In this document: one piece after another, positions 1,657 to 47,265 of the stretch
Layout: each line of letters begins with the position of its first letter
Numbering within the stretch: the stretch's first letter is position 1
Origin: Clostridia bacterium
Lineage (GTDB): Bacteria > Bacillota > Clostridia > RUG12999
Direction: 5' to 3'
Assembly (NCBI GenBank): GCA_022801925.1
Contig: JAAWTG010000003.1
Location: forward strand, 20,611-84,610
Length of the DNA: 64,000 nt
Made by a program: the position numbers and the translations under genes
Notes under the pieces: model-generated
The model's input: the letters and a program-made list of their open reading frames with translations, nothing else
Database searches by the model: none
Told to the model about the DNA's origin: nothing

Positions 1657-1837
1657 ATAAGTGACTCAGCAAATCGTAAAACGGTTGAAGACGTGGAGAA
1701 GCAGCGCAAGCCGGCGCAGGATTTGCTGCAATTGCAAGAGGGTTTTTCAATGCAAAATTTATGAAAATATGTGCGATGATACTATCTGTCAAAACAGGGC
1801 GGCGGAACGAAGATATTATGATAATGGAGAAGTGGCG

Positions 1838-3293: not shown

Positions 3294-3323
3294 TAAAAAG
3301 CGGCAAATAGAAGGAGAATGGTG

Positions 3324-5861
3324 ATGGTAAAAAATACGATAGGTTTTTTGAAAATTAGTCTGATTACGATATTGGCGTTATGCATTGGAGTATTTTTATG
3401 CATGACAAACTATATGGTTCGGCAGAGTGACAAGGCAATTAACGACATCGGAGAAATATATATGTCGGCGATGAGTGCCCAACTCAAAATACATTTTGAG
3501 TCCATCATAGATTTGCGGCTTTCACAGGTGGAAGGAATTGTTGAGAGAACACCAACGAATACGGTTACATATGGCGATGAAATGTTGGAAGAATTGACAA
3601 TCAGTGCAGAAGTGCGCGGTTTTACGCATTTAGGGTTGTATCGTGCGGAAGATGGCATTGAATTAATTTATGGAGATGAGTTAGAACTACCGAATGCAGC
3701 GCCGTTTTTTGCATCGCTAAATCATGGAGATGAAAAAGTGGCAACAGCACATGCAAAATCAAGTGAAGACACGTTGCTTTTGGGAATTCCTGCCGATTAT
3801 CCTATGAGAGATGGAAGAAAGAGTACGGCATTAGTTGTTGGAATTCCGCTGAATTATATCAACGAGGCAATGGAACTGGATGTCGGCAATGCGGAGGTAC
3901 ATTCGCATATCATCCAAAAAACCGGAGATTATGTTTTACGTTCTTCTGAAAATGAAGGAACAAGCTATTATGAATATTTAGAAAAGAGTATAATGGAGAG
4001 TGGACAGTCGGGACCGGAAGAAATAAAACGATTGCAGGAAACGCTGCAGACGGGAAACAATTATTCAACGGTTGTTACCATCAGCGGAGAAGAACGTCAC
4101 ATTTATGTCACAGATTTGCCAAACAGTGAGTGGTATATGGTAACGGTTATGCCATATGGTGATTTGGATGCAACCGTTACAAGACTGGGAGACCAACGTA
4201 TCTATTCCACGTTAATCGGAAGCGCAATTATGCTGCTGGCATTACTTAGTGTATTTTTTATCTATTTCAGACTGACGCAGCGGCAGCTGAAAGAACTGGA
4301 AGAAGCGAGAAAACAAGCGGAACGGGCAAATTTGGCGAAAAGTGAGTTTTTGTCAAATATGAGTCACGATATCCGTACGCCGATGAATGCGATTATGGGT
4401 ATGACAGCGATTGCGACAGAAAATATGGATGACGCGGAACGGGTAGCGGATTGTTTGAAAAAGATTTCCGTGTCCGGCAAACACCTTCTGGGGTTGATTA
4501 ATGATGTGCTGGATATGTCAAAAATAGAAAGCGGTAAAATGACATTGAATATCTCTAGGATTTCTCTGAGGGATACAATGGATTCTATTGTGAATATTGT
4601 CCAGCCGCAGGTGAAAGAAAAAAATCAGACGTTTGACATCTTTATCCGCAACGTGATTACGGAAAATGTTTTTTGTGATGGTGTGCGGCTGAATCAGGTG
4701 TTGATTAATATTTTAGGAAATGCAGTGAAATATACACCGGAAGAGGGAGAAGTTCATGTCACCTTTGATCAGGAAGCATCACCAAAGGGAGATGACTATG
4801 TCAGGGTACATTTTCGAATCAAAGATACCGGAATGGGTATGACGCCGGAGTTTTGTAAAAAAATTTTTGATTCCTTTTCACGTGAAGACAGCACCAGAGT
4901 GCAGAAAACAGAAGGAACCGGTCTGGGTATGGCAATCACAAAATATATTGTAGATAAGATGGAAGGCACCATAGAAGTTACAAGTGAACTGAATCAGGGA
5001 AGCGAATTTCATGTTATTTTAGATTTGGAAAAAGCGTCTGAAAAAGAAGAAGATATGCAGCTCCCGGATTGGAAAATGCTGGTGGTAGACGACAATGAAT
5101 TGTTCGGTCAAAGCGCGGTTGATTCACTGAAAGAAATTGGCGTGAGGGCAGAATGGGTAGACGATGGTTTGAAGGCAATTGAAATGGTGAAAGAATGCCA
5201 CAGCCGGCAGGAGGATTATAATATTGTGTTGCTGGACTGGAAGATGCCCGGCATGAACGGCATTGAAACAGCGCGGAAGATACGTAGCCTTGTTGGAGAA
5301 AATGTTCCAATTCTTTTGATTTCTGCCTATGACTGGAGCGAATTTAAAGAGGATGCGTGTGCAGCGGGAATCACTGGTTTCATATCAAAACCGTTATTTA
5401 AATCCACGTTGTATTATGGTCTGAAAAAATTTGTCTGTGACGGAGCGGAAAGTGACGAGATACTGCAAGATGAGACGAAAGACTATACAGGAAATCGGAT
5501 TTTGTTGGCGGAAGATAATGATTTGAACTGGGAGATTGCAAATGAATTGCTGTCCGCTTTTGGTTTTGAAGTGAAGTGGGCGGAAAACGGAAAATTGTGT
5601 GTAGAGGAATTTTGTCAGTCGGCACCAGGATATTATGATGTTGTGCTAATGGACTTAAGAATGCCTGTTATGAATGGTTATGAAGCGGCAAGCGCTATTC
5701 GCGAGACGGAACGGGAGGACTGTGATATTCCGATTATTGCCATGACGGCGGACGCTTTTGCGGAGGATATTCAACGTTGTCTGGACTGTGGAATGAACGC
5801 GCATGTATCCAAGCCAATCGATATGAACGAATTGTTGCATACTTTGGAGAAGTATATCTAA
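3324..5861 (+). CDS. Hybrid sensor histidine kinase with an extracellular sensor domain, HisKA/HATPase core and two C-terminal receiver domains
   Basis: N-terminal TM helix, periplasmic domain and second TM helix. H-box SNMSHDIRTPMNAI, HATPase G-boxes, then two REC domains (MLVVDDNELF...LLDWKMPGMNG and ILLAEDNDLN...LMDLRMPVMNG). RBS AAGGAGA is 6 nt before the ATG at 3324. Confidence 0.9.
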   Translation: MVKNTIGFLKISLITILALCIGVFLCMTNYMVRQSDKAINDIGEIYMSAMSAQLKIHFESIIDLRLSQVEGIVERTPTNTVTYGDEMLEELTISAEVRGFTHLGLYRAEDGIELIYGDELELPNAAPFFASLNHGDEKVATAHAKSSEDTLLLGIPADYPMRDGRKSTALVVGIPLNYINEAMELDVGNAEVHSHIIQKTGDYVLRSSENEGTSYYEYLEKSIMESGQSGPEEIKRLQETLQTGNNYSTVVTISGEERHIYVTDLPNSEWYMVTVMPYGDLDATVTRLGDQRIYSTLIGSAIMLLALLSVFFIYFRLTQRQLKELEEARKQAERANLAKSEFLSNMSHDIRTPMNAIMGMTAIATENMDDAERVADCLKKISVSGKHLLGLINDVLDMSKIESGKMTLNISRISLRDTMDSIVNIVQPQVKEKNQTFDIFIRNVITENVFCDGVRLNQVLINILGNAVKYTPEEGEVHVTFDQEASPKGDDYVRVHFRIKDTGMGMTPEFCKKIFDSFSREDSTRVQKTEGTGLGMAITKYIVDKMEGTIEVTSELNQGSEFHVILDLEKASEKEEDMQLPDWKMLVVDDNELFGQSAVDSLKEIGVRAEWVDDGLKAIEMVKECHSRQEDYNIVLLDWKMPGMNGIETARKIRSLVGENVPILLISAYDWSEFKEDACAAGITGFISKPLFKSTLYYGLKKFVCDGAESDEILQDETKDYTGNRILLAEDNDLNWEIANELLSAFGFEVKWAENGKLCVEEFCQSAPGYYDVVLMDLRMPVMNGYEAASAIRETEREDCDIPIIAMTADAFAEDIQRCLDCGMNAHVSKPIDMNELLHTLEKYI

Positions 5862-8858: not shown

Positions 8859-10679
8859 TTATTTTTTGTTGCGCTGACGTGCGCGTTCATCGTTGTTCAA
8901 AATGCTTTTCCGCAAACGAATGCTGGCAGGGGTAATTTCCACCAATTCATCGTCTGCGATAAATTCCAGACAGTTTTCCAAACTCATAATAGTGTGCGGC
9001 GTCAGACGCAGCGCTTCATCACTGCCGGAAGCACGCATGTTGGAAACCTGTTTCTTTTTACAGACGTTGACTACCAAATCATCTGATTTTGCGTTTTCGC
9101 CCACAATCATACCCTGATAGACTTTCTCGCCGGGACCGATAAACAAACGTCCGCGCCCCTGCGCATTATACAGTCCGTAGGTGATGGATTCTCCGTCCTC
9201 AAAAGCAATCAAAGAGCCGTGGCTGCGCGTTTCAATATCACCTTTGAAAGGCTCAAAACCGTCCAGAATGGAGTTCATAATACCGTTTCCTTTGGTATCG
9301 GTCAAAAATTCGCTGCGGTATCCAATCAGTCCGCGGGAAGGAATGCGAAATTCCATGCGTGTGTAGCCGCCGACCGGTGCGTGCATGTTCACCATTTCCG
9401 CTTTGCGCGTGCCCAGTTTTTCCATGACAGGACCGACAAATTCTTCCGGCACGTCAATAATCAATTGTTCTACTGGCTCCAGTTTTTGTCCGTCCACATC
9501 TTTAAAAATGACCTGCGGTTTGGACACCTGAAATTCATAGCCGCCGCGGCGCATGGTTTCAATTAAAATGGATAAATGCAGTTCGCCGCGTCCTGAGACT
9601 TTGAAACAGTCGGCGCTGTCTGTTTCCTCCACGCGCAAACTGACGTTGGTTTCCAGTTCCTTCATCAACCGGTCGCGCAAATGGCGGGACGTGACAAATT
9701 TTCCTTCTTTTCCGGCAAAAGGACTGTTATTCACCAAAAAGTTCATGGAAATGGTCGGCTCGTCCACCTCAATCACCGGCAGGGGATCGATTTGGTCTAA
9801 CGCGCAAATGGTTTCACCAATTTGAATGTCGCCCAAACCGGAAATACATACAATATCGCCCACGCTGGCGGTTTCCGTTTCAATTCGCTTTAACCCTTCA
9901 TAAATATAGACTTTGTTGGATTTCACAGGTATGTTCGTGCCGTCCTTTTTGCAAAGGGACAATGTTTCGCCTGCATGGAGTGTTCCGCGTGCGATACGTC
10001 CCAGCGCAATCCGTCCGACATATTCATCATAGTCAATGTTGGAAATCAGCATTTGCAGCGGTGCATCCTGCTGTCCCTGCGGATAGGGAACTTTGTCAAT
10101 AATCATTTCAAACAGCGGCTGCAAATCATCATTTGGCTTGTCCAGACGTTCCATGGCAAATCCTTCGCGGGAGGAAGCATAAACAACGGGAAAATCCAGT
10201 TGTTCTTCGCTTGCGCCAAGGTCAATAAATAAATCCAGAACTTCGTCCAAAACTTCTGTGGGACGTCCGTCGCTGCGGTCAATTTTATTGACAACCACAA
10301 TGGGTTTTAAATCCAGTTCCAACGCTTTTTTCAGCACAAAACGCGTCTGCGGCATAGCGCCTTCAAAACTGTCTACCAGCAGCAATACGCCGTCCACCAT
10401 GCGCAGCACGCGTTCCACCTCGCCGCCGAAATCTGCGTGTCCGGGCGTATCCACAATATTAATGCGGTAACCATCGTGCATGACAGCGGTTGTTTTGGAT
10501 AAAATGGTAATGCCGCGTTCCTTTTCCAAATCATTGGAATCCATCACACGTTCCGCCACCTGTTGATTGACGCGGAAAATACCGCTCTGCCGCAGCATGG
10601 CGTCCACCAAAGTGGTTTTACCATGGTCAACATGGGCGATAATGGCAATGTTACGAATTTTCTCCTGTGTATAGTTCAT
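8859..10679 (-). CDS. typA: Translational GTPase TypA/BipA
   Basis: [16 protein letters not shown]1 motif and EF-G-like architecture over 606 aa. Confidence 0.95.
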
Positions 10680-26133: not shown

Positions 26134-26248
26134 GTGATATCATAACCGGCTTGCAGCAGCAGGAAAAATCGTGTTTGCAGGAAGAATTTGGGGAGGCAAA
26201 AAGAGTCCGGCAGAGCCGGGTGCAATAAGAGAAAGGAATGTCAATGAT

Positions 26249-28981
26249 ATGAAGATGATGGAAAAACTCTTCGGCACATATAGCGACAGGGAACTCAAAC
26301 GGATTTACCCGATTGTCGATAAGATTGAAGCGTTGGAAGAGGATATGAAACAATTAACGGACGAACAACTGCGTGGCAAAACAGCGGAGTTTAAGGATCG
26401 GCTGGCAAACGGAGAAACCTTGGATGATTTGCTGCCGGAAGCATTTGCGGTGGTTCGGGAAGCGGCGGACAGAGTGCTGGGACAGCGGCATTTCCGTGTG
26501 CAGCTCATTGGTGGTATTATTTTGCACCAGGGACGTATTGCAGAGATGAAAACAGGGGAAGGAAAAACATTAGTATCAACGCTTCCTGCCTATTTGAATG
26601 CCCTAACAGGCAAAGGTGTTCACATTGTCACAGTCAACGATTATTTGGCAAACTATGCAAGCGAACTGATGGGGAAGGTGCACCGGTTTTTAGGGCTTAG
26701 CGTGGGACTGATTGTCAATGGATTGGATAATAATGAACGGCAAAAGGCATATGCAGCAGATATCACCTATGGAACAAATAATGAACTGGGATTTGACTAT
26801 CTGCGTGATAATATGGTGATTTATAAAGAGCAGATGGTACAGCGCGGACACAATTATGCGATTGTGGACGAAATTGACTCCATTTTGATTGACGAAGCAC
26901 GAACACCGTTGATTATTTCCGGCGCCGGCGATAAATCAACGGATATGTACACCATTGTAGACCGGTTTGTGGCGCGGTTGACGCCTATTAAACGGGCGGA
27001 GTTTGATTCCAAAGAGAACTTCGATGACCTTGACGGTGATTATTTGGTGGACGAAAAACAAAAAACAGTTACACTGACGCAGCGCGGTATCAAAAAAGCG
27101 GAGGAAGCGTTTCATATTGATAACTTGTCTGACCCTGAAAACATGGCGCTGCAGCACCACATCAATCAGGCGATTCGTGCGCACGGTATCATGCGCCGCG
27201 ATATTGACTATGTGGTGAAAGATGATGAAGTTCTGATTGTTGATGAATTTACAGGTCGTATTATGATTGGCCGCCGCTATAGTGAAGGTCTGCATCAAGC
27301 AATTGAAGCTAAAGAAGGCGTGAAAGTAGAAAGGGAAAGCAAAACGCTGGCAACGATTACGTTCCAGAACTATTTCCGTCTCTATGATAAATTAGCAGGT
27401 ATGACCGGTACCGCGCTGACAGAAGAACAGGAATTTCGTGAAATTTATGGGCTGGACGTGGTGGAAGTGCCAACAAACCGCCCGATGATACGAAAAGATT
27501 TGTCTGACGTTGTCTATAAAACAGAGGACGCGAAATTCCGCGCGGTAGTAGAGCAGATTAAAGAATGCTATGAAAACGGACAGCCGGTGCTGGTGGGTAC
27601 CATTTCCATTGAAAAATCCGAATTACTCAGCAAAATGCTGAAAAAACAGGGGATTCCGCATCAGGTGTTGAATGCGAAATTTCATGACAAGGAAGCGCAA
27701 ATCATTGCGCAGGCGGGTAAATCGGGCGCAGTGACCATTGCAACCAACATGGCGGGTCGTGGTACGGATATTATGCTGGGCGGTAACGCGGAATATTTGG
27801 CGCGCAACGCCATGGAAAAAGATGGCTACGAACCGGAACTGATTTTTGAAGCGACAGGATTTGCAGAAACAGATGACGAAGAAGTTTTAAACGCAAGAAA
27901 AGTCTATCAGGACTACTATGAAAAATTTAAAGAACAAATCAGCGATGCGCGTGAAGAAGTAATTCGGGCGGGCGGCTTGTTTATCGTAGGTACCGAACGG
28001 CATGAATCACGTCGTATTGATAACCAGCTGCGCGGACGTGCAGGACGTCAGGGAGACCCCGGTTCTTCGCGGTTTTTCATTTCGCTGGAGGACGACCTCA
28101 TGCGCCTGTTTGGTTCCGACCGTGTGAAAAAAGTGGTGGAAACCATGGGGCTGGAAGATGACGAACCCATTGAACACAACATGCTGACCAAAGCCATCAG
28201 CACGGCGCAGAGCCGCATTGAAGGCAGAAACTTTGAATCTCGTAAACACGTGCTGCAATATGATGAAGTGATGAACCAGCAACGTAAAATTATCTATAGT
28301 CAGCGGCAGCAGGTATTGGACGGTGAAGACCTCAAAGAGAACATCACGAATATGATAGAAGAATATTTCAGCGATATGGTAGACCGTTATACGGCGGGCG
28401 ATATCGTGGACGACTGGAATCTGATTGGCTTAGCGTCTGAAGTGGAAGGCATTCTGTTTGAGCCGGGTGAATTTGCCTATCAGCAGGAAGAGTTGGATTC
28501 GTTGGAACGCGACGACTTGAAAGAGCGCATTCTGGAGCGCGCAATGGAAAAATATAAAGCGCAGGAAGAACTCATTGGCACGGAACAAATGCGGGAAGTG
28601 GAACGCGTGATTATGCTGCAAAACGTAGACCGTAAATGGATGGATCACATTGACAGTATGGATCAGCTCAAACGCGGTATTACCCTGCGCGCCTATGCAC
28701 AGCGCGATCCGGTTGTGGAATATAAATACGAAGGTATGGACATGTTTGAGGAGATGATTAACTCCATCAAAGAGGATACGGCGCGCATGGTGCTGACGGT
28801 GAAATTCCGCACACCGCCGCAGCGGGAACAAGTGGCAAAACCGACGACGGCTTCCCATGGTGGCGAAGAAGGCGGCGTGAAAAAGACCGTTGTGAAAAAA
28901 CAAAAAGTGGGACGTAACGACCCATGTCCTTGCGGCAGCGGCAAGAAATATAAAAAATGCTGCGGCATGAATGAGGAATAA
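26249..28981 (+). CDS. secA: Preprotein translocase ATPase SecA, with a C-terminal zinc-binding CxC...KKCC tail
   Basis: [10 protein letters not shown]-terminus, DEAD-like motor motifs, and C-terminal [14 protein letters not shown]. Confidence 0.95.
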
Positions 28982-29069
28982 AAAAATAGAGACGCTGCAA
29001 AAAAGCGTTTTACATGCAAATGCAGACGCTGCAACGTTTAAAATAAATCAAAAAAAGGGAAGTGAAAAA

Positions 29070-30174
29070 ATGATTGATTTGGAGCAATACCGTTTGGATA
29101 CCAAGTCCATGGAAAATCAATTAAAAGAATTGGGGGATTCACTTTAACATCGCTAAAGTGAAACTGGAAATTGCAGACTTGGAACAGCAGCAGACCGCCG
29201 AAGGGTTTTGGGACGACATGGAAGCGTCCAGCAAGGTGCTGCAAAAGACGAAACAACTGAAAAACAAAGTGGATAAATTTGAAACGCTTTGCGGCGAGCG
29301 AGAGGATTTGTTGGTTCTGATTGAAATGATGCAGGAGGAACCGGACGAATCCATGGAGGAAGCAATCCAGTCGGCATATGCGCAGCTCGCAGAGAAGCTG
29401 GAGCAAATGAAACTGGATACGCTGCTCAGCGGCCCATATGACAAAAACAATGCCATTATTGCGCTTCACGCGGGCGCGGGCGGCACAGAAGCACAGGACT
29501 GGGCGCAAATGCTAATGCGCATGTATCTGCGCTGGGCGGAGCGGCATGGATTCAGCACAAAAGTGCTGGATTTATTGGACGGCGAAGAAGCGGGCGTGAA
29601 AAGCGCCAGCATTTTGATTGAAGGGGAAAACGCCTATGGTTATTTGAAATGCGAAAAAGGCGTGCACCGACTGGTGCGGATTTCTCCGTTTGACGCGTCG
29701 GGGCGACGGCATACCTCATTCGCGTCGCTGGATGTGATGCCGGAATTTGACGACGACATTGAAATCAATATCAGTCCCGAGGATTTGCGCGTGGATACCT
29801 ACCGCGCAAGCGGCGCGGGCGGACAGCACGTCAACAAAACAGAATCCGCTGTCCGTATCACACATTTGCCAACGGGCGTGGTGGTTTCCTGTCAGACGGA
29901 ACGTTCCCAGATTCAAAACAGGGAAACCGCTATGAAAATGCTGAAATCCAAACTGCTGGAAATTGCAGAACGTGAAAAAATGGAAAAAATTGAAGATATC
30001 AAAGGCGAAATGAAAGAAATCGGCTGGGGAAGCCAAATCCGCTCGTATGTGTTTCATCCCTACACTATGGCAAAAGACCACCGCACGGATTTTGAGGTGG
30101 GCAATATCGGCGCAGTGATGGACGGCGAACTGGACGGATTTATTCAGGCGTATTTGAAAGCAAACGTAGAGTGA
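29070..30174 (+). CDS. prfB: Peptide chain release factor 2, translated via a programmed +1 frameshift at CTT-TAA-C (29142-29148). ORF1 is 25 codons, then the frame shifts into 29146->30174.
   Basis: ATG at 29070 with a GGGAAG RBS. An internal SD-like GGGGG lies 5 nt before CTT TAA C. The downstream frame encodes GGQ, SPF and the rest of RF2. Confidence 0.9.
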
Positions 30175-36622: not shown

Positions 36623-38527
36623 CTACTGCCTATGCTCTTTTAAAAATTTTTTCGCCTCCTTCAGCGGCAAAGCGCGGGAATAGTAAAATCCTTGAATGAG
36701 GTCGCAGTCGGTGCTTAGTACCATTTTATTATGTTCTTCCGTTTCGACACCCTCGCATAGAACGGTGATATTCATGCTGTGTGCCAAGCGAATAAGTCCG
36801 TCCAGCAACATTTTTCCGCGGCTGTCCATAGCGTTTAGAACAATGTCCCGTTCCACTTTCACGTAATCTATTGGATAATGATAGAGGTCAGATAGAGAGG
36901 AATAGCCGCTTCCGATATCATCCAAAGCGATTAGAAATCCAAGCGCCTTACATTTTTGCAGATTTTCCTGCAAAAGTTTCGGATTGTGTGACCGGGAATC
37001 TTCTGTAACCTCAATGATAAGGTGACTGTGGAGAAAAGCGTAACGTTCAGCAATTTCTTTGATATGGTTTGAAAAATCCGGTGCAGTAATGGAATAGCGG
37101 GTGAAATTACAGGATATAAACATATGACCCAAACCGTCCTGTTCCCATTTCGCCAGTTGTTTACATACCTGCGAAAAAATATAGTAATCGTGCGCTGTTA
37201 CAGCGCCGGTTTGGTTCATGAGTTCAATATATTTTGACGGCGGCAGCAATCCTTCTTGCGGATTTTGCCATCTGGATACCGCTTCTGCGCCGTATATTTC
37301 ACCTTTTCGGTTGACAATATATTGCAGATATAACTGAAATTCACCGTCCTTGATTGCCTGCGTGATACGGTGATGCAGGCGTTCATTCTGATGTGTTTCC
37401 GCGACGAGGGTTTGCGTGCTGAAAGAAAAGTTCAGTTTGTGACCCACTGCGTGGAGATATCCTTGTTTTGCGTTGTAGAAAGCGGATTCGCTGTCACAGT
37501 CCATGTTTTCTTCCAGCGCACAAACGCCGGCGGAAAAGAGATTCGTATATTCACTTTTGAATTGACTAAGATAGACGTCCAGTTCGTCCATGATACGCTT
37601 GATTCGTTCTTCTGCCTTTGGTTTATTGCTGCTTTGATAGAGAAAAGCAAACACGCCGGCATTTACCAATGCAAGATATTCTGCGGCGCCGGTTTTTTGA
37701 TTTAAAAATGCTGCCACATACTGCTGAACCGTTTGGGTTTCGCTTCCGCCGTACCGCCGGTTGAAGGTTTCTTCATCAAAGGAAATATAGGCAAGATAGT
37801 ATAGACTTTTGCTTTTATCGGAAATAAGATTGTCGTAGCAATAAATGTAATATTTATCATTTCCGATACCATATTGGGGATGTATCATCAGGTCGTCTTG
37901 CGCAGCTTTCCGCTTTCTCCCAAAATGGATTGCCAGCACCGTCGCTGTCAGCAAAACAACTGATAAAATACCACCTAAAACATATACAAACAATATATGG
38001 ATTCGGTTCACGCCGCCGTATTCCCTTGTATAGGACGAGAGAAACGTAAGTTTTTGTTCCGCAGATATCTCGGAAAACGCAGCGGAAACCTTTGATACGA
38101 TTTCTTCAGAGGCAATGTTAGAAAATGCAAAACAGACCCGCCGCTCTCTGCCGTCAATCGTAATGTTGGAAACGAACTGCGGCGTCTTTATATACTGCTC
38201 GTCAATCGCTTCCTCCAAATAGGCGGATATGATATCTGCCTGCCCGTTTTTTGCCAGACGCGCCTGTGCATGGGGACTGCTATCCTCCAAATACTGAAAA
38301 GTATAACCGGTTTTTTCAGAAATCACCGCATAAAGCTGCGGCATGAGACCGGCAAACTGTCCGCTCTTATCGTCATAATATTCTATCGGATACATATCGG
38401 TGTTTCCTGCCACATAAACGGTGGATTCTGAAGCAAACGAATGAACAGCAGCAAGAAACATAGAAAGCACGATAATACAGATATAGATACATATGGTTCT
38501 GACGAGCCCCATGTTACGGTTGTTCAT
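36623..38527 (-). CDS. Membrane-anchored sensor protein with a periplasmic domain, a degenerate GGDEF-like region and an EAL c-di-GMP phosphodiesterase domain
   Basis: C-terminal EAL motifs (LIALDDIGSGYSSL, DYVKVERDIV, QGFYYSRALP). Start chosen at MNNRNMG, which has a GGTGGA RBS. The longer ORF extension overlaps the upstream gene out of frame. Confidence 0.8.
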   Translation of the reverse strand: MNNRNMGLVRTICIYICIIVLSMFLAAVHSFASESTVYVAGNTDMYPIEYYDDKSGQFAGLMPQLYAVISEKTGYTFQYLEDSSPHAQARLAKNGQADIISAYLEEAIDEQYIKTPQFVSNITIDGRERRVCFAFSNIASEEIVSKVSAAFSEISAEQKLTFLSSYTREYGGVNRIHILFVYVLGGILSVVLLTATVLAIHFGRKRKAAQDDLMIHPQYGIGNDKYYIYCYDNLISDKSKSLYYLAYISFDEETFNRRYGGSETQTVQQYVAAFLNQKTGAAEYLALVNAGVFAFLYQSSNKPKAEERIKRIMDELDVYLSQFKSEYTNLFSAGVCALEENMDCDSESAFYNAKQGYLHAVGHKLNFSFSTQTLVAETHQNERLHHRITQAIKDGEFQLYLQYIVNRKGEIYGAEAVSRWQNPQEGLLPPSKYIELMNQTGAVTAHDYYIFSQVCKQLAKWEQDGLGHMFISCNFTRYSITAPDFSNHIKEIAERYAFLHSHLIIEVTEDSRSHNPKLLQENLQKCKALGFLIALDDIGSGYSSLSDLYHYPIDYVKVERDIVLNAMDSRGKMLLDGLIRLAHSMNITVLCEGVETEEHNKMVLSTDCDLIQGFYYSRALPLKEAKKFLKEHRQ

Positions 38528-39008
38528 TTTGACATCCACCCTTTTCAATCTTTTTTCGAGTGACCGGAGAAAAGTGTTGCGGTTCTGAAAGCACCTCACT
38601 TTTCTCAGACAAATTATCACCCAATATATCAAGTAATTGCTGAATGCTATCGCGTACATCATGGATACCGGCACTGCATTCACGGATTCGTTTTTGCAGT
38701 TCATGGGCGCATTCCAGATTTTTTTCCAGAAACTTTGCATTTTCAGCATTTGCTTTTTGCTTCAATTCTACTGCATACATTTTTGCATCGGTCAACACTT
38801 CCGCCACACGGTCGCGTTCTGCATAAAAAGCTGCGTTTTCCTGCTCAAGCCGTGCAATTTTTTTATTGAATTCCTGCACTGCCTGTTCGTGTGCTGTTAT
38901 GGTATCCATCATTTTCAGGGAAAATTTTTCGTTCATTTTTGCGATATATTCACATATATCGCTTTTTTTATATCCCCAAAATCCCTTTTTCAAACGTGTA
39001 ATATCCAT
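38514..39008 (-). CDS. DivIVA-domain coiled-coil protein (GpsB/DivIVA-like)
   Basis: N-terminal LKKGFWGYKKSDICEYIAKM matches the DivIVA N-terminal pattern (K.F..RGY...EV..FL..V), and the rest is coiled coil. RBS GGAAAGGAGA. Confidence 0.6.
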   Translation of the reverse strand: MDITRLKKGFWGYKKSDICEYIAKMNEKFSLKMMDTITAHEQAVQEFNKKIARLEQENAAFYAERDRVAEVLTDAKMYAVELKQKANAENAKFLEKNLECAHELQKRIRECSAGIHDVRDSIQQLLDILGDNLSEKSEVLSEPQHFSPVTRKKIEKGGCQNEQP

Positions 39009-39054
39009 AAAAATCTCCTTTCCGATTTTTCGGTATCATAGCCGGACACGCTTT

Positions 39055-40458
39055 TTAATGCAACTTGATTTTTTTGCGTTCAATACGACCCCATTGTGTT
39101 TTCTTTTTGCGATAGCCAATAAATGCGGTGGAGCGTACCCAAGCAAGGATAAACCGCAGACAGGTTAATTCAAAGAAACATAGTAAGACAGCCTTGACAC
39201 CGTCTATAAATGAAATTTTCATATCTGTTGTATAGAGGCGTGAGAAGAATGCCGAAAGCGAGAGGATGGAACTGAATCCGGCATATATCAGGAAAAACAG
39301 AATCATAAACGGAACATGCAATAAACCGGTTGCCCACGCCAAAAGCATAGTGATAACGCCAAATATTTCAATAAACGGTGAAAACAACTCATAAATCAAA
39401 AAGTATAAATAGGATATGAAACTGACTGCACCGAATTTGGGATTGGAAAACATTTTACGGTGCGCAAACATGCTTTGAAACAATCCCAAATGCCATCTTT
39501 TACGCTGGCGGCACAAATCACGCAAGTTTTCGGGTACTTGTGTCCAGCAGATGGCATCGCTGGCATATCGAATACTGTAGTTGATATGGTTCATGGTACA
39601 ATATTCATGCAACTTGACCACCAATTCCATATCCTCGCCGATTGTTTCATTGCTATAACCGCCCGCCGCTATGACTGTCTCTTTTTTGAACAGTCCGAAC
39701 GCACCGGAAATGATAAGAGAACCGTTGAATTTATCAAACAGAATTCTGGACGCCAAAAAAGAACGGGCATATTCTAAAACTTGCATACAAGCCAAGATAT
39801 TACGCGGCATACTATATTTTTTGAGCCGTCCGTTTTCCAGTTCGACTGCATTGGAAATGCGCACCATACCGCCGACGGCAACCACATTATCATTTTCCAG
39901 AACAGGTTGTGCAATGCGGCGCAGGGAGTCATATTGCAGAAAAGAATCGGCGTCAATACAAATAAAATACGGAAATGTGGAGGCATTAATACCCATATTC
40001 AGCGCGTCTGCTTTTCCGCCGTTTCGTTTACGAATGAGCGTCAGCGGTACCTTTTGCAAGCGGGACTCATAGACAAATTCTTCCGGCTGACAGGGAAGTT
40101 GCCGGCGTATCGGACAGTGAACGGGGCGCATGTCAAACGCTTCAATTAACTTTTTGGACATATTGTCTGTGGAACCGTCGTCTACTACAATAATCTCATA
40201 GGAGCGATATTCAAGCTGCAAAAGAGATTTGACGTTTTCCACCACAGTAATTTCTTCATTATAGGCAGGTACGATAATGGTAATCGGAACATAATAGTCC
40301 TGCGGGAGAATGTTTTTCATCAACTCACGCCGACGGAGTTTATACAGTTCAAGAGAGCCGACAACAAGCGAGATAAAAAGGAAGGTTGAATATCCAATGA
40401 GATAGGCGATAAAGAAATAGCCGGTCCAATCCAAGAATACTTTAAGCGTGTCTAACAT
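39055..40458 (-). CDS. Processive family-2 glycosyltransferase / polysaccharide synthase (PgaC/IcaA/NodC/HasA-like)
   Basis: N-terminal TM pair, DDGSTDN, DAD, QRKRW (QxxRW) motif, and 3-4 C-terminal TM helices. The start overlaps the upstream gene's stop (ATGTTAG). Confidence 0.85.
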   Translation of the reverse strand: MLDTLKVFLDWTGYFFIAYLIGYSTFLFISLVVGSLELYKLRRRELMKNILPQDYYVPITIIVPAYNEEITVVENVKSLLQLEYRSYEIIVVDDGSTDNMSKKLIEAFDMRPVHCPIRRQLPCQPEEFVYESRLQKVPLTLIRKRNGGKADALNMGINASTFPYFICIDADSFLQYDSLRRIAQPVLENDNVVAVGGMVRISNAVELENGRLKKYSMPRNILACMQVLEYARSFLASRILFDKFNGSLIISGAFGLFKKETVIAAGGYSNETIGEDMELVVKLHEYCTMNHINYSIRYASDAICWTQVPENLRDLCRQRKRWHLGLFQSMFAHRKMFSNPKFGAVSFISYLYFLIYELFSPFIEIFGVITMLLAWATGLLHVPFMILFFLIYAGFSSILSLSAFFSRLYTTDMKISFIDGVKAVLLCFFELTCLRFILAWVRSTAFIGYRKKKTQWGRIERKKIKLH

Positions 40459-41570
40459 ATGGATGCATCCTCCTTTTCTGCGCGTATCATATCACGAACA
40501 TCAAAATGGTACCGGAGAATTTCGGAGGCGTAGCGGTCATGTCCTTCCAAAACATCAATCAAATCCAGATAAGTCAATCCCAGCCGTTCAAGACTTTGCG
40601 CGGAATTGAACCGGATATGCCAGTTGCGGTGATGTAAATTTGATTTTAAAATTTCCACTGTTTTCTCTGCAGGGTAGGAAGCCAAAACAGAAGATGCTAT
40701 AGCGGCATATTCCCAGCGCATATCGGTTCTGCTGTTCGCATAAAGCAATAAATATTCATATGCCGGTTCATAGCGGTATTTACCGAAATAGCGAATACAG
40801 GCAAACCGGAGTTCATCGTCCTGCGATGTATCCTTCATAAGCCGCAGGATATCTTCGCAATGGTCTCCTGAGCTAAAGCGGAAATAGTTCAGCAGCGTGA
40901 TTTGCATCTTACGCGAGAAATCCTCAAATGTTTCCCAAAGTGCAGCGTTGAGTCGTTGCGTATTACCTGCGAAATTTAATAATCCATCCGCCAACAGTTT
41001 GCTATGATAGACTTTATTTTCATTGTCTATGATTTTTAATGCTTTTACAATGCAAGAAGCGTCTCTGGTAGTATAGAGCGCCTGCATAGCGTTTTCCCTG
41101 CAATAGATGCTCGGTTCATGGAGAAGCCGGAACAACATATCAATCATAGCGTCAAACGGACGGTCTGCCAAAATTCTATATTTTTTGATGATATATGGGA
41201 AATATGCCGCTTCCATAGAATCTTTTTTGCAATATTCGATAGAAAGAGATACAAACACACTGCCAATGGAATAGAGATATTTTCGGACAAGCATTGGATT
41301 TTCAAGATGTTTTTTTTCAAGCGCTGCATCAAAAGCACGCATGTTGCTGATGCGTTTGAGTTTTCCGGAAAGATAGTTTTTGTGTGCGCTGTGCACAGCA
41401 CTGTGCGTTTCCAGCCATATCAGTTCACTGCGGATCCTGTCCTCAAAACCATTGCTGACCCGAAGAATCCTTTTGTCCCTGCGGCGGGAGAGGAATGCAC
41501 TGATGATATTAAATAAAATCATGCCAACGCATATGACAAGATAGACATAAATCATTTTTTCTATGTTCAT
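40452..41570 (-). CDS. Hypothetical membrane-anchored alpha-helical repeat protein (HEAT/TPR-like), unknown function
   Basis: Single N-terminal TM helix followed by about 330 aa of predicted helical repeats. RBS GAAAGGG before MNIEKM. Translationally coupled to the GT2 gene. Confidence 0.5.
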   Translation of the reverse strand: MNIEKMIYVYLVICVGMILFNIISAFLSRRRDKRILRVSNGFEDRIRSELIWLETHSAVHSAHKNYLSGKLKRISNMRAFDAALEKKHLENPMLVRKYLYSIGSVFVSLSIEYCKKDSMEAAYFPYIIKKYRILADRPFDAMIDMLFRLLHEPSIYCRENAMQALYTTRDASCIVKALKIIDNENKVYHSKLLADGLLNFAGNTQRLNAALWETFEDFSRKMQITLLNYFRFSSGDHCEDILRLMKDTSQDDELRFACIRYFGKYRYEPAYEYLLLYANSRTDMRWEYAAIASSVLASYPAEKTVEILKSNLHHRNWHIRFNSAQSLERLGLTYLDLIDVLEGHDRYASEILRYHFDVRDMIRAEKEDASIC

Positions 41571-41593
41571 TGTGAGAACCCTTTCTTTTGGTG

Positions 41594-41660
41594 AGACAAA
41601 CAAAAGTCGAATCTCATGCGGTCACTGCATGGCGCAACCATATTCGACTTTCGTTTGCCT
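41594..41660 (-). repeat. Intra-operon hairpin / short repeat copy (AAAGTCGAAT...ATTCGACTTT followed by a T-rich run), between the glycoside-hydrolase and helical-repeat genes
   Basis: 10-bp stem with a nested CATGC..GCATG stem. On the minus strand it is followed by TTTTGTTTGTCTC. The 27-nt 3' half recurs at 47497-47525 and a variant at 6017-6037. Confidence 0.45.
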
Positions 41661-41672
41661 ATCCGCGTACTG

Positions 41673-43844
41673 CTATGACCATAATTGTTGCAGCATATAA
41701 TAGGAACTTTTCAGGCGTTCATGATAGCTTATCTGGTTGCCCCAGCCTTTCAGTTTGAAAGAGGAGAACGGTATCCGACCGCCGGAATTACCATCTGTCA
41801 GTGCGAAATACAGTTCATTGATTTTGATATAGTCTATACCGTAGTTGCCGCTGTAATAATCATCATGAATCATCATACGAGACGGATCGGAGAAATTCAA
41901 AAGCTGCCACGGCAGTTTCAGTTCAATATAGTCTCCACTGCAGATATAGTCGGCGAGAGAGTCAAACGCCGGACTAGACGGATTGGCGTTGCCATATTTG
42001 AGTTTTCCGGTCTCAAAGACCTCTGAGTTTGCCAAATTATCGTTATAGAGAAGTACCGTAGCGGTTTGCAGAATCATCTGAATCGGCAGGAAACGTGGCG
42101 AGTCAATATCAGGTATGTTGCTTGCGATATAAGTATCAAAATCATAAGCTTGCAGTGCATAGGTTGAACGCAGCGATTCATAACGTTCCTGCACCAAAAC
42201 ACGGCTGTTTTCTCTGCCGTGCAGCACAATTAAAAAATCTGCTGCACGGTCTAATAAAAGATTTTGTTCCTTGCAATAAAGGCTGCCGCTTTTGGGCGTG
42301 ATATCCAAAGGAATATAAAGCGTATCGGTTTCGAGGTTGAGGTTCGGTTTGTGAATCAGGAAATAGAGGAACCGCTCATCATATTTTACAGAAAGGGACA
42401 TGCCGCCGTTTTGGACGACCAAATCCGATTCTGTCCATTCAGAAATATCTCCGTCCACATAGCAAACAGATTTTTCGGCGCCAGGGTCAAAGGATAATAA
42501 GCCAAAATATTGCTCGTTGGTCTGATAGTCCGACCAATAGGGCGTTCTTGTCAAATCCACTGCATACATCGTATTCCAGGTGCGTTTGAACCATTCATCC
42601 TGCCACGAAAATACACAGCAGCCGGCACAACCTGCCGCCATAATATCCTCATAACAGTCGATAAGCGCTTGACCCTGTTCCTGTTCGGACATGTTGCCCT
42701 GATTTCTTCCGGTGTTTGCATCCCTTTGCGCCATTCCGCGTCCGGTGGAAACGCCGAACTCCGAAATAACCACGGGCATGGTATGATGGGTTGTGAGCAT
42801 GGCAAGATAGGCGCGGTAGGTGCTGAGTTGCCCTTTTGCATTGATATATGCCGATTTATCTGCGATTCCAAACGGTGACCAATCGTCAATATAGGTGAGG
42901 TAGTCGGGATAATAGGGATATACATGGTAGGAGGCAAATTGTCCGGCAAGAAATGTGTCATAGGTTTTAATATGTTCCGCATTCACATAGGCACATTTCA
43001 TAAAGAAATTTTTGATTCGTTCAGGATATTCAAAAGGATCAGTGGTCGGCCAGTTGGAAAAGGCAATGAGTTTTTGCGTTTTATAGCGGCAAGATTCATA
43101 TTCAACCACTTTGTCGCCGACTTTACAAAGCAGCGTTTCAAAGGGAGAGGCGTCCTGCGTGGTATACATATATTTCCCTTGATAAGAGGTATAACCGTCT
43201 TTGCCCGCGTAAAGATCGTCTGTATAAGCAACCGTAAGGTCTTCCCACTCCACGCCCAAAATATAACCGATGACCCAAGAAGAGACGTCTTTTAGATAAC
43301 TGCCGGAACCGGCGCTTGATACACTATTCAGCGCAATTTTTTTATTGCCGTGTACGGCATCCAGCATAGTTTTGCAATCATTTAAAAAAGTATCATAAAA
43401 TTCCTTACTATAGGCATCGCGGTGGGAATTTTGTATGTAGTCGTTGACCCATACGCCGTGAATCAAATAGAGTGGGTCAGGATTGTTTTTATTATATTCG
43501 TAAAACGCCTTGTAAAAAACGTCCTGTTGAATGGTATAGATACGAATCGTGTTGGCGCCCATTTCTTTGATATATTGAAACCAGCGAAGATAGGTTTCTT
43601 TGTCGATTGCAAAATCGGTAGACCATGCGCCCGGCGCGCCGGAGCCAAGATTCACACCACGAATCTCAAAGGGTTCATACCCGTTTCCCTTGTCCATATA
43701 TATTTTATCGCCATCTGTTTTGACAAAGGTGGTAACTGCTTTGGCAGGCTGAAAATCAATATACCATCCGAGCCGGAAATAAATGGCGTCATAGACCAGA
43801 GCCAATGCTACAACAGATGACAAAATGATTAAAAACTTTTTCAT
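41673..43844 (-). CDS. Secreted glycoside hydrolase-like protein (TIM-barrel clan GH-A type, candidate exopolysaccharide hydrolase)
   Basis: Signal/anchor sequence, GVNLG...IKEMGANTIRIY, and a candidate nucleophile motif VVISEFG. 723 aa. Confidence 0.5.
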   Translation of the reverse strand: MKKFLIILSSVVALALVYDAIYFRLGWYIDFQPAKAVTTFVKTDGDKIYMDKGNGYEPFEIRGVNLGSGAPGAWSTDFAIDKETYLRWFQYIKEMGANTIRIYTIQQDVFYKAFYEYNKNNPDPLYLIHGVWVNDYIQNSHRDAYSKEFYDTFLNDCKTMLDAVHGNKKIALNSVSSAGSGSYLKDVSSWVIGYILGVEWEDLTVAYTDDLYAGKDGYTSYQGKYMYTTQDASPFETLLCKVGDKVVEYESCRYKTQKLIAFSNWPTTDPFEYPERIKNFFMKCAYVNAEHIKTYDTFLAGQFASYHVYPYYPDYLTYIDDWSPFGIADKSAYINAKGQLSTYRAYLAMLTTHHTMPVVISEFGVSTGRGMAQRDANTGRNQGNMSEQEQGQALIDCYEDIMAAGCAGCCVFSWQDEWFKRTWNTMYAVDLTRTPYWSDYQTNEQYFGLLSFDPGAEKSVCYVDGDISEWTESDLVVQNGGMSLSVKYDERFLYFLIHKPNLNLETDTLYIPLDITPKSGSLYCKEQNLLLDRAADFLIVLHGRENSRVLVQERYESLRSTYALQAYDFDTYIASNIPDIDSPRFLPIQMILQTATVLLYNDNLANSEVFETGKLKYGNANPSSPAFDSLADYICSGDYIELKLPWQLLNFSDPSRMMIHDDYYSGNYGIDYIKINELYFALTDGNSGGRIPFSSFKLKGWGNQISYHERLKSSYYMLQQLWS

Positions 43845-43865
43845 GAATCCTCCTAATGAAACTAC

Positions 43866-45341
43866 TTAGTTTGCGTTTTCGTTAAACTTTTTCACCTTTG
43901 ACCCAGCGGAATATTGCGTGATAGATTCTATGTTTTCATCCAGCCAGGAGCCTCTATACGAAATAAACCACTTGAGCTGCGCAAGACTTTCTTCATAGGA
44001 ACGTGGATTGCGTTCGATAGGTTTTAGCAAATCATGACTTTCTTCAAAGGAATACCCCCATTTTTCATAGTTTCGCGCTATCGCGGCACCTAAATACTCT
44101 ACAGTGCTGTCAATATAACGGCAAAGATAGTCCTCGCTGAGATAGGTTTGACGAAGTTCATGATAACGCTTGACACAACGTTTTGTAAAGTTTTCATCTT
44201 TTGTCAGCATAAAGTACCACAAACAATTTTGAAGTTCAAAATGTCCGGGCTGCATCATAGATTGCTGATAGTTGTCACAGGCAGAGTTAAAATCCCAAAT
44301 ACACATGCGGAACTTGCCGTCGATATCTTTATACATATAAGTGGATAACCAGCCGGCGTCGTAGTTACAGGTAAACTCATTTATGAGAAGATAGTCTACA
44401 AAAGAATCTACATCAATCAATTTTTCATACCCATATTGGTTATTGTCGTAATCATAGGAATAGAGTGATTTTTCAAAAGCGGAAAAATCTTGTTTGATTC
44501 CTTCCAATATTTTGGGCGTTAGATTGGGAGCGCCGGGATATACAATTTCCAATTTCAGATTTGTGCGGAGCGTATAGGTGGTAAAACTTTTCAGATGGTT
44601 CTGTTCCTCGTTGTCCGGACGGTCAAGTAACAATACATAGCCGGTAAAGGTATTATCTTTTGCATCGACAGTCAGATTTAGGCGACTTCCGTTTTTGCCT
44701 GCCGTAATGTTTTCAACCAATACATAAACGCCCATATATTCACCATCAAGGAGCAATTCACAAAAGCGTACATTGGGAGCGTAGTCCATAATCTCGCCGG
44801 CAATATTATACCACATATAATTACGAAGCAGTGTCTTGTCCAAAATCGGACCGTGCAGCACCCATTCATGATGGGCGGTCATTCCGATTAGACTTTGTGG
44901 ATTGTTTCCTCCTTTTTCATCAATCAGATTGATGCGATAGCCCAATTTATCATAGGTACGCGAGGAATTGCCGCGTACATGAATGGATATATCGCTGGTA
45001 ACAGCAGGAACATCAGTGGGATGGTTGTTGGTTGTTTTATTATCAAACACCGACAGCTTGGCACGGATTCGGTCGCTACCGTCAGCCGCGGTTGTATATC
45101 CGGTCGTTTTACCTTCTTCCACGATTGCCCTTCCGGGTATTTCCACACCGCCTGTATGAATGGTTATCAACGGTAAATGTGTGCAGAAGGTATTGTCCGT
45201 ATGGGGGCATGGTTGTTTCGGCTCTGCCTCCAAATGTTGATGATAGCGTCCGGTATCCGCAGTCAATAAAAGAGGCAAATTTATCGCAGAAATGAGCAGC
45301 ATGAGTGCACAGGCAATGATACCCCAAACTTTGTATTTCAT
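43866..45341 (-). CDS. CotH-family protein (atypical kinase fold), secreted or membrane-anchored
   Basis: N-terminal hydrophobic segment. 491 aa with CotH-like conserved blocks (RGNSSRTYDKLGYRINL, HEWVLHGP, YVLVENI). Sits in a CotH-DUF4956-VTC context. Confidence 0.6.
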   Translation of the reverse strand: MKYKVWGIIACALMLLISAINLPLLLTADTGRYHQHLEAEPKQPCPHTDNTFCTHLPLITIHTGGVEIPGRAIVEEGKTTGYTTAADGSDRIRAKLSVFDNKTTNNHPTDVPAVTSDISIHVRGNSSRTYDKLGYRINLIDEKGGNNPQSLIGMTAHHEWVLHGPILDKTLLRNYMWYNIAGEIMDYAPNVRFCELLLDGEYMGVYVLVENITAGKNGSRLNLTVDAKDNTFTGYVLLLDRPDNEEQNHLKSFTTYTLRTNLKLEIVYPGAPNLTPKILEGIKQDFSAFEKSLYSYDYDNNQYGYEKLIDVDSFVDYLLINEFTCNYDAGWLSTYMYKDIDGKFRMCIWDFNSACDNYQQSMMQPGHFELQNCLWYFMLTKDENFTKRCVKRYHELRQTYLSEDYLCRYIDSTVEYLGAAIARNYEKWGYSFEESHDLLKPIERNPRSYEESLAQLKWFISYRGSWLDENIESITQYSAGSKVKKFNENAN

Positions 45342-45375
45342 CTATTTACCTCCTGCATTGTTTTTTGAACATGGT

Positions 45376-46053
45376 TTAATTTGACACTTCATCGTTTTGC
45401 ATGACGATGTTTACATATTCGACATTTCCAAGCGCGTAGATACCGGCGGTGATATCGGGCGTTTGTTTTTCCGCTTTTTGCAGCATTTTTTGTGTTAGTT
45501 CGTAGATAAGTTCCACGGTGTCTTCTGTCGTGTTTTCCACGCGGAGAACCGCCTTTGTATGGAATATCTTATAGATTTGCGCTTTAATAGGCGCCTGTTT
45601 ACTACGCGCGGCACGCACGATAAGCAGCATTCTATGGTCGTTTTTAATGAAGCCAAGTACTAGAATCACAAAAAAGGTAACTGCACTTCCAATACCTGCC
45701 ACAAGATAATCGCCTACACCACAGCAGATACCGACAATGATAGTCCAAAAAATGTATACCGTATCCCGCGAATCTTTAATAGCAGTACGGAACCGGACAA
45801 TGGACAGCGCGCCAACCATTCCGAGCGACAATGCAATATTGTTGCCGATGACTGTCATAACAGTGCTTGTCAGCACTGTTAGAATCGTGAGAGAAGCATT
45901 AAATTTTTTACTATAGATAGTGCCGCGGTGAGATATGTAGTAGGAAATGAAGATAAACAATCCAAGTGCCGCCGCCGTCGCAATATTCATTAGAATTTGT
46001 TCAGCAGTCATGTCGCTGGGATTGGTAAATAGGTTATATATTTTTTCTTTCAT
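45376..46053 (-). CDS. DUF4956-family membrane protein
   Basis: Four TM helices followed by a soluble C-terminal domain. Typical genomic partner of VTC-domain and CotH proteins. Confidence 0.6.
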   Translation of the reverse strand: MKEKIYNLFTNPSDMTAEQILMNIATAAALGLFIFISYYISHRGTIYSKKFNASLTILTVLTSTVMTVIGNNIALSLGMVGALSIVRFRTAIKDSRDTVYIFWTIIVGICCGVGDYLVAGIGSAVTFFVILVLGFIKNDHRMLLIVRAARSKQAPIKAQIYKIFHTKAVLRVENTTEDTVELIYELTQKMLQKAEKQTPDITAGIYALGNVEYVNIVMQNDEVSN

Positions 46054-46067
46054 ATATTGATAACTCC

Positions 46068-46775
46068 TTATAATCTCGTTTGATACCCATTTTGGCGGGC
46101 AAGCACATATTTACTGACAGATAATTCGCTACGGTTCACGCTGTTTATCATACGGCGGATATAATCGAGCAGAAAGCCGTTGAATTTCACTTCCATAACC
46201 ACGTTAAATTTGTCCAGCACCGGATTCATATTAAGATATGGCGCAAACAAATCAAAATTGCTTTCCGTAGCCACAATATTGCTGTCAAAAGTAATACGGA
46301 TTTTATTCTCCTTTGCAATGAATGCTTTGCGGTGATATTGTACGATTGTTTTAGGACGGTAACAGCGAGTATTCATGAGCGCATAACATTCGGCTGCAAA
46401 GCGCTCTTTGTAATGCAGAAGAGGGGAATAATCGCCTTTGGTAAGCGCTATGGCTTCTTCACGCGATATCTGCAAAGAACGCTTAAGTTGATACGCACCT
46501 TGTTTTTGTTTCATCTCAAGCATAGCAAAATGAGAATTTGAGTCATAAATACGCAGCCTGATTTTGCGCCTTGTTTCTATGCCGGAAATCTTTTCAAAAT
46601 AGTCTCTGTCATATATTGTATCAAAATATAGTGAGCGAATCACATATCCATGCGTTCCATTATGTATATCTTCTGACATTACTTGGCTTAACATGTGGCT
46701 CTTTTCGAGAAATTCATCAACGTTTATTAAGAACTTTTTTTCTTCTCTGAAAACTTTGTTCAATCCTACCATCAT
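46068..46775 (-). CDS. VTC-domain protein (polyphosphate-polymerase-like triphosphate tunnel fold)
   Basis: SLYFDT motif and about 235 aa, matching bacterial VTC-domain proteins. First gene after the riboswitch leader. The RBS AGAAGG abuts ATGATG, so the exact start is uncertain. Confidence 0.6.
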   Translation of the reverse strand: MMVGLNKVFREEKKFLINVDEFLEKSHMLSQVMSEDIHNGTHGYVIRSLYFDTIYDRDYFEKISGIETRRKIRLRIYDSNSHFAMLEMKQKQGAYQLKRSLQISREEAIALTKGDYSPLLHYKERFAAECYALMNTRCYRPKTIVQYHRKAFIAKENKIRITFDSNIVATESNFDLFAPYLNMNPVLDKFNVVMEVKFNGFLLDYIRRMINSVNRSELSVSKYVLARQNGYQTRL

Positions 46776-46781
46776 CCTTCT

Positions 46782-46822
46782 AAAAACAAAAAAACTGACT
46801 GCAATTTAAACTTGCAGTCAGT
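46782..46822 (-). terminator. Intrinsic terminator forming the expression platform of the leader riboswitch
   Basis: Perfect 11-bp stem ACTGACTGCAA/TTGCAGTCAGT with a 7-nt loop, followed by TTTTTTTGTTTTT, ending 6 nt before the RBS. Confidence 0.8.
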
Positions 46823-46829
46823 CAATCAT

Positions 46830-46898
46830 TCGAATTTATTCGGTTAGACACTTAACTTTGCGTCCCCGCTTTTCAACAGGTTTGCCTAATATTCATTT
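46830..46898 (-). promoter_or_regulatory. Candidate c-di-GMP-I (GEMM) riboswitch aptamer
   Basis: Minus strand reads ...TTAGGCAAACC TGTTGAAAAGCG GGGACGCAAAG TTAAGTGTCTAACC... This reproduces the GEMM-I conserved blocks GGCAAACC, a 12-nt hairpin with a GAAA tetraloop, and GGGACGCAAAG, with the same 12-nt spacing as the Vibrio cholerae Vc2 aptamer. Confidence 0.55.
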
Positions 46899-47093: not shown

Positions 47094-47170
<77 letters not shown>

Positions 47171-47176
47171 ATATAT

Positions 47177-47265
47177 TGGTGCCGGAAACCGGAATCGAAC
47201 CGGTACGGGAGTTTCCTCCCACAGGATTTTAAGTCCTGGGCGTCTGCCAGTTCCGCCATTCCGGC
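47177..47265 (-). tRNA. tRNA-Leu (UAA)
   Basis: 89 nt with a long variable arm, anticodon loop CTTAAAA, a GTTCGATTC T-loop, and an encoded CCA end. Confidence 0.85.

Follow-up and report, generated by a model that had tools for sequence, protein, structure and literature searches.

An RF2 gene with UAA in its programmed frameshift site in an uncultured Clostridia bacterium, and UAA and UAG at the same site in its relatives

In the 64-kb stretch of Clostridia DNA analysed here (the window), prfB, the gene for release factor 2 (RF2), lies on the forward strand between secA on its 5′ side (26171–28981; NF009538 SecA, 1259.8 bits) and hisZ on its 3′ side, and the secA–prfB order is also found in most relatives. 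The coding sequence is divided between two frames. ORF1 (29070–29147) starts with the ATG at 29070 and consists of 25 sense codons (MIDLEQYRLDTKSMENQLKELGDSL) followed by an in-frame TAA, whereas ORF2 (29146–30174) occupies the +1 frame, supplies RF2 residues 26–367 in 342 open codons beginning with AAC (Asn), and ends at the TGA at 30172–30174. The frames meet at the shift site CUU UAA C (29142–29148), which comprises the Leu P-site codon CUU (29142–29144), a slippery U (29145) that directly follows CUU and belongs to the stop, the UAA itself (29145–29147), and a C (29148) that provides a weak termination context. Upstream of this site is an internal Shine–Dalgarno-like element, GGGGGAUU (29132–29139), identified by reading the sequence and by RNAduplex pairing with the 16S tail GAUCACCUCCUUUCU. 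Its G-run, GGGGG (29132–29136), is followed by ATTCA (5 nt) and then by CTT. The UCA (Ser) codon at 29139–29141 would occupy the E site of a ribosome whose P site holds CUU, and its CA is the predicted unpaired spacer. In the fused protein of 367 residues, SPF, the tripeptide for stop-codon discrimination, occupies positions 205–207 (29683–29691), GGQ, which serves peptidyl-tRNA hydrolysis, occupies positions 250–252 (29818–29826), and residue 246 is Ala. A sequence-only reading of this DNA had proposed an RF2 encoded in two frames, with a 25-codon ORF1 stopping at CTT TAA C, a GGGGG run upstream of the shift site, SPF and GGQ in the +1-frame body, and UAA rather than UGA as the sensor stop; our translation and motif search reproduced every element of that description. 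We found no promoter or terminator above shuffle expectation between secA and prfB on the forward strand. In public gene calls (L201–L205), prfB is split into a 58-aa ORF (window 28971–29147) and a 338-aa PCRF/RF-1 protein (29158–30174), and the programmed frameshift is thus missing from the public annotation of this species' prfB.

Elsewhere in the window, a c-di-GMP-I riboswitch (46810–46896, minus strand; 71.1 bits) heads a minus-strand row of genes (36623–46775) encoding a VTC domain, a DUF4956 protein, CotH, an unknown 723-aa protein, HEAT repeats, a GT2 glycosyltransferase, and an EAL phosphodiesterase. This row has a GC content of 42.5% compared to 46.2%, and its codon-usage score is below that of the rest of the window. 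Genes for tRNA-Met (CAT; 47094–47170, minus strand) and tRNA-Leu (TAA; 47177–47265, minus strand) lie just upstream of the riboswitch. A second cyclic-di-GMP-related signalling cluster of the window occupies 1661–5861 on the plus strand; in this row, a response regulator with an HD-type phosphodiesterase domain, which weakly matches the NosR c-di-GMP phosphodiesterase family, is accompanied by a small ORF of 116 aa and by a hybrid histidine kinase that contains receiver domains.

We scored the fused protein against family models and compared the gene with its closest relatives. The NCBIfam prfB model TIGR00020 matched with 539.8 bits (cutoff 370) in an alignment spanning residues 12–363, and the match thus reaches into ORF1; the RF1 models scored 291.7 and 279.7 bits, both under their own cutoffs. 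The nearest relative, L001 (94% amino-acid and 85% nucleotide identity), has an identical shift site, and comparison with it gave a dN/dS of 0.036 at a dS of 0.84, a mark of strong purifying selection. In the comparison with L006, pS was 0.75, a value at which synonymous sites are saturated, and TAA was still kept. That prfB is a decaying pseudogene, a reading to which the in-frame stop at codon 26 lends itself, is extremely improbable, because the 342-codon +1 ORF is undamaged and retains every catalytic motif, dN/dS is low, and UGA ends 12 of the 41 window genes, so that RF2 is needed. Thus, the window prfB is a real, functional RF2 gene with UAA in its +1 frameshift site.

The sequence-only reading had left room for a base-call error at the stop. 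The window appears to be a metagenome-type assembly, in which a single G-to-A miscall would turn TGA into TAA, and an assembly fault could likewise interrupt a gene that is in truth continuous. An exact-sequence lookup of the neighbouring HisZ protein retrieved independent assemblies of the same species, and four of them, from different runs and samples (the Logan runs SRR11195286, SRR36181221, and SRR36199849, and the NCBI metagenome-assembled genome GCA_949742335.1), include the prfB site. These four match the window at 99.8–100% nucleotide identity over 4.4–6.8 kb, all carry GGGGGATTCA CTT TAA C, and are identical to it across the 91-nt site region, with TAA at 29145–29147. The site also recurs across species. 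When we scanned a genome collection with the fused RF2, which yielded 80 species-level loci, GAGGGATTCA CTT TAA C was present at the homologous codon in L001 and in 11 further species (among them L006, L009–L014, L016, L018, and L028), such that 12 other species-level genomes in all carry GGGATTCA CTT TAA C; one of these (L010) comes from an isolate in culture, Ructibacterium gallinarum DSM 107454. The comparison with close relatives that had been proposed as a check therefore bore out the UAA reading, and replication across four assemblies and 12 other species makes a sequencing or assembly error exceedingly improbable.

In a neighbour-joining tree of RF2, TAA-type loci fell into two groups. 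One consists of the window, L001, and L006, with the in-frame loci L002–L004 nested among them, and the other comprises nine species around R. gallinarum and has no TGA member. One subclade, of about 11 species, contains no state other than TAA or its derivative TAG. Two bins in this set carry Roseburia labels, namely L016 (CAVGTH010000087.1, Roseburia faecis) and L026 (CAVALG010000132.1, Roseburia sp.). The RF2 and secA–prfB–prfA layout of L016 group with Ructibacterium-like uncultured Clostridia, the RF2 of L026 groups with other uncultured Clostridia/Oscillospiraceae bins, and both labels are probably wrong.

We next consider the Shine–Dalgarno-like element and its distance from the shift site. 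In the window the G-run ends 5 nt before CUU, compared to 3 nt in E. coli, as the sequence-only reading had counted; its suggestion that this spacing is unusual did not hold, as TGA-type Clostridia share the same layout. The sequence G(A/G)GGGATTCA precedes CTT in 7 TGA, 12 TAA, and 2 TAG loci, GGGGGCTTCT precedes it in two further TGA loci, and AGGTGA(T/G/A)TC(A/T) is common to many Clostridia. Judging from these loci, the 5-nt layout is not specific to TAA and is normal in a broad set of Clostridia whatever the stop. RNAduplex predicted that GGGG^GAUU of the window pairs with 16S positions 1530–1538 through 8 base pairs with A1534 bulged, at −10.9 kcal/mol, compared to −10.7 kcal/mol for the E. 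coli site, and the predicted unpaired gap before CUU was 2 nt in both; the partner in these calculations was the conserved 16S tail, which may not be the host's own 3′ end. The restoration of a short gap by extended pairing is thus a thermodynamic prediction. The window's GGGGGAUUCA is two substitutions from the Clostridia archetype, whose fully complementary form, AGGUGAUU, pairs perfectly (predicted duplex −16.0 kcal/mol) and keeps UGA.

Across 20 species, the 17-nt block UGaGGGAUUCACUUUa.CaU is invariant or nearly so. The invariance extends to the wobble bases of the Asp, Ser, and Leu codons, and UCA is kept in 20 of 20 aligned GGGATTCA-type sites, although any TCN or AGY codon would encode Ser. 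Because the block is invariant or nearly so while flanking synonymous sites are scrambled, the pattern argues for selection at the nucleotide level on the whole element, spacer included. The C after the stop was present in 12 of 12 related TAA loci. RNAalifold applied to the 20 sites returned a 5-bp hairpin of invariant bases (−2.5 kcal/mol) with no covariation; we therefore did not count a conserved mRNA structure acting as an additional stimulator as evidence.

In several relatives (L002–L005, L007, and L015), which lack the frameshift, prfB encodes an uninterrupted protein, and ORF1 is homologous to its N-terminus. The L002 junction reads in frame as IELEQYKSDLKAVEDGIKELGDSL-NLAK (...IKELGDSL-NLAK...). 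L002 and L003 have CTT AAC, one T short of CTT TAA C, and L015 has CTT GAT, one T short of CTT TGA; such footprints record how the frameshift was lost. The losses in these close relatives were independent, and the SD-like run is degraded there.

The in-frame relatives also bear on whether any frameshift occurs at all. If ORF1 were an unrelated mini-ORF and a 338-aa RF2 began at the GTG at 29158, as the public gene calls list it, no recoding would be needed. This arrangement is very improbable: no SD-like sequence precedes GTG 29158, TIGR00020 covers ORF1 from residue 12, and the invariance of the block formed by the SD-like element, CUU, stop, and C would be unexplained without recoding. Because the N-terminal helix of the in-frame relatives' RF2 is homologous to ORF1, both the mini-ORF and the internal GTG start are ruled out. 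The window gene is almost certainly a genuine +1-frameshifted prfB.

What a UAA sensor can report depends on the release factors that read it. UAG is specific to RF1, and UAA is read by both RF1 and RF2. Among the coding-score-filtered window genes (n = 41), 21 end at TAA, 12 at TGA, and 8 at TAG. Alignments of two TAG-terminated proteins run to the ends of their profiles, covering positions 1–147 of 147 for NrdR and 1–230 of 231 for HisA, and these alignments together with the stop counts indicate that TAA, TGA, and TAG are all true stops. Because UAG is a genuine stop in this genome, RF1 activity must exist. prfA, the RF1 gene, was not found within the 64-kb window and is present in TAA-type relatives; we infer RF1 activity in this organism from its UAG usage and from the prfA genes of these relatives. 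An alternative genetic code or the loss of a release factor was considered and rejected, as all three stops end window genes and the relatives have prfA. RF2 with Ala246, as in the window, is the active, non-K-12 form, and it shares UAA decoding with RF1 in E. coli. It is therefore reasonable to expect RF1 as well as RF2 to terminate at the UAA sensor, as the sequence-only reading had held.

These observations suggest the following mechanism. A ribosome would translate the 25 codons of ORF1 and arrive with peptidyl-tRNA-Leu on CUU and the stop codon in the A site, where UAA followed by C would be a poor context for termination. GGGGGAUU, predicted to pair with the 16S rRNA 3′ tail only 2 nt behind the P codon, would place an SD/anti-SD helix near the P site and favour re-pairing of the tRNA on UUU. 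If a release factor won this competition, termination would yield a useless 25-mer; if the tRNA shift won, decoding would resume at AAC (Asn) and produce the 367-aa RF2. As termination competes with shifting, release-factor activity would set RF2 output. With UAA as the sensor, RF2 and RF1 could both trigger termination, so the site would sense UAA-termination capacity in general, and feedback by RF2 would be kept but, because RF1 can read UAA too, would no longer be exclusive. The slippage itself, the register in which the SD element pairs, and how far RF1 and RF2 each contribute at the sensor are inferred here. Taken as a whole, a classical +1 programmed frameshift in a functional prfB, with mixed RF1/RF2 feedback, is the reading we regard as probable.

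Much of this architecture is shared with known sites. The E. coli prfB site (AGGGGG UAU CUU UGA C), which we found as AGGGGG TAT CTT TGA C at 100% identity in 5,426 of 5,426 complete genomes, likewise has a 25-codon ORF1, CUU-U, a C directly after the stop, and an SD-like element on the 5′ side, and the motifs of E. coli RF2 carry the same numbering (SPF205 and GGQ250). It differs in having UGA, GAC (Asp), and a UAU E-site codon where the window has UAA, AAC (Asn), and UCA, in neighbouring lysS rather than secA and hisZ, and in its pairing, which in the window, unlike in E. coli, is predicted to extend with a bulge into 16S 1530–1533. Bacillaceae and Paenibacillus loci (L035, L047, L051, and others) share the window's Firmicutes context, secA–prfB order, and recoding logic, but their site, AGGGGG UCU CUU UGA C, uses UGA with a 3-nt spacer and encodes R-G-S-L* rather than the L-G-D-S-L* of the window. 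Another UGA-type site is the Clostridia-type AGGUGAUUCA CUU UGA C (L061, L075, and L078), with the same GAUUCA spacer and the same 16S 1530–1537 register.

UAA at this position is not unprecedented, as the sequence-only reading had allowed that it might be. Among 8,164 motif-bearing genomes surveyed by Prince et al. (mBio 2025, PMC12421855), 98.6% had TGA as the sensor and 1.4% had TAA, whereas none had TAG. The authors depict CTTTAA as scattered and 'poorly tolerated', without broad fixation in clades, consider that RF2 still dominates UAA decoding so that autoregulation would persist, and take the lack of TAG as an argument that RF2 autoregulation is the universal purpose of the motif (PMC12421855). 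The window has the same CTT TAA C heptamer as this CTTTAA class and allows the same reading that RF2 can terminate there, and its site is thus one more uncultured species in a documented minority. Unlike the scattered TAA sites of that survey, however, TAA has been held in the window lineage through saturated synonymous change. The new points come from the relatives: the persistence of TAA, the CTT AAC footprint, CTT TAG C, and the association between sensor and tandem gene order, the last two of which are described below.

Two species representatives in the genome collection, L017 and L024, read GGGATTCA CTT TAG C (in L017 at ~2990–3000). A metagenome scan for the 15-mer GGGATTCA CTT TAG C returned at least 120 stretches, most of them chance matches, among which were at least 10 genuine prfB loci: L099 and L131 (site at 9452–9466), which are independent assemblies of the L017 species; L117; L109 and L193; L181; L112 and L124; L115; and L146. 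ORF1 and a 344–351-aa +1 body with SPF and GGQ were present in 11 of the 12 TAG-type loci; the twelfth, L099, ends at a contig end after 123 codons. In TAG-type loci TAG serves as an ordinary stop too, closing secA, prfB, and rpsK. On the RF2 tree, TAG loci occupy at least four well-separated places, one of them inside the TAA clade, a position consistent with a path from TGA through TAA to TAG by single transitions. For the pairs L017/L117, L112/L124, and L109/L181, pS was 0.75–0.85 and pN was 0.06–0.09, and because synonymous divergence is saturated while pN is low, these TAG-type prfB genes are old and functional. A column-by-column scan revealed no convergent RF2 substitution in TAA and TAG lineages except at residue 26, where the change is forced. 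Altered RF2 specificity in these lineages was considered and rejected, as the SPF loop is the same there as in TGA-type relatives.

In many TAA- and TAG-type loci prfA lies directly 3′ of prfB in the order secA–prfB–prfA, the two genes being separated by −1 to 97 nt. Tandems with a TAA sensor occur in L009–L014, L016, L018 (partial), and L028 (4076–5134 in L010), and those with a TAG sensor occur in L017/L131, L117, L024, L115, and L146 (1266–2336 in L115). By comparison, prfA was found in the 3-kb flank of 0 of 48 TGA-type loci and 0 of 17 in-frame loci. Stop identity played no part in the selection of the genome-collection set, in which tandem loci comprised 9 TAA, 2 TAG, and 0 TGA sites, whereas non-tandem frameshifted loci comprised 48 TGA and 2 TAA sites. 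Fisher's exact test of sensor against tandem order gave p = 1.9e-10, a value that ignores shared ancestry and may reflect only one or two independent events. The tandem is not required for a sensor other than UGA, because the window lineage has TAA, and two distant lineages have TAG, with no adjacent prfA. That the tandem loci of the unselected set carry TAA or TAG alone suggests that a single stop-codon sensor may gate both release-factor genes in secA–prfB–prfA. Neither natural TAG sensors nor prfB–prfA tandems came up in the literature that could be searched.

Close relatives with UAG at this site, or with no frameshift left, show that this lineage can do without feedback specific to RF2, so that it is less safe to assume that the window site still acts mainly as an RF2 autoregulator. 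The alternative that survives best holds that the frameshift is real but no longer serves as an RF2-specific autoregulator, with the stop acting as a slow A-site codon or being read mainly by RF1 and drifting from TGA through TAA to TAG; the window UAA would then be one neutral or RF1-weighted stage of that drift. In favour of this drift, relatives with GGGATTCA show all three stops and repeated frameshift losses at the homologous position, TAG is nested inside the TAA clade (L017 and L117 beside L010 and L013), and TAG sites are stable at saturated synonymous divergence. The residue after the shift varies freely (D, N, S, or G), so only regulation constrains the stop, and every tandem prfB–prfA locus in the unselected genome set is TAA or TAG (11 of 11), compared to 2 of 50 non-tandem sites. 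However, the C after the stop and the SD block are invariant, such that competition with termination appears to be under selection still, and UAA remains readable by RF2, which in the window carries Ala246. Moreover, the window's own lineage is among those without adjacent prfA, and the link with prfA adjacency may stem from one or two evolutionary events. On balance, we consider loss of RF2-specific autoregulation by drift unlikely as an account of the window site, and its placement of the window UAA at a neutral or RF1-weighted stage equally so, although neither is negligible. For the window itself we therefore retain the classical +1 frameshift with mixed RF1/RF2 feedback.

For the wider group of uncultured gut Clostridia, we offer a more tentative proposal, in which our confidence is somewhat short of even: the sensor may have escaped the RF2-specific UGA rule, with UAA becoming stable and several lineages moving on to UAG, so that RF2 synthesis would be under RF1 or joint control and the window site would belong to a relaxed or cross-regulated system. 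The argument that RF2 autoregulation is the universal purpose of the motif rests on the absence of UAG and on UAA being unfixed in clades, and both premises fail in these Clostridia. Here UAA is passed on through many species, the UAG sites are undamaged, recur in independent assemblies, and are under purifying selection, and the identity of the stop tracks the co-location of prfA with prfB. As R. gallinarum DSM 107454 is in culture, the choice between joint and RF1-driven control of RF2 synthesis is experimentally approachable.
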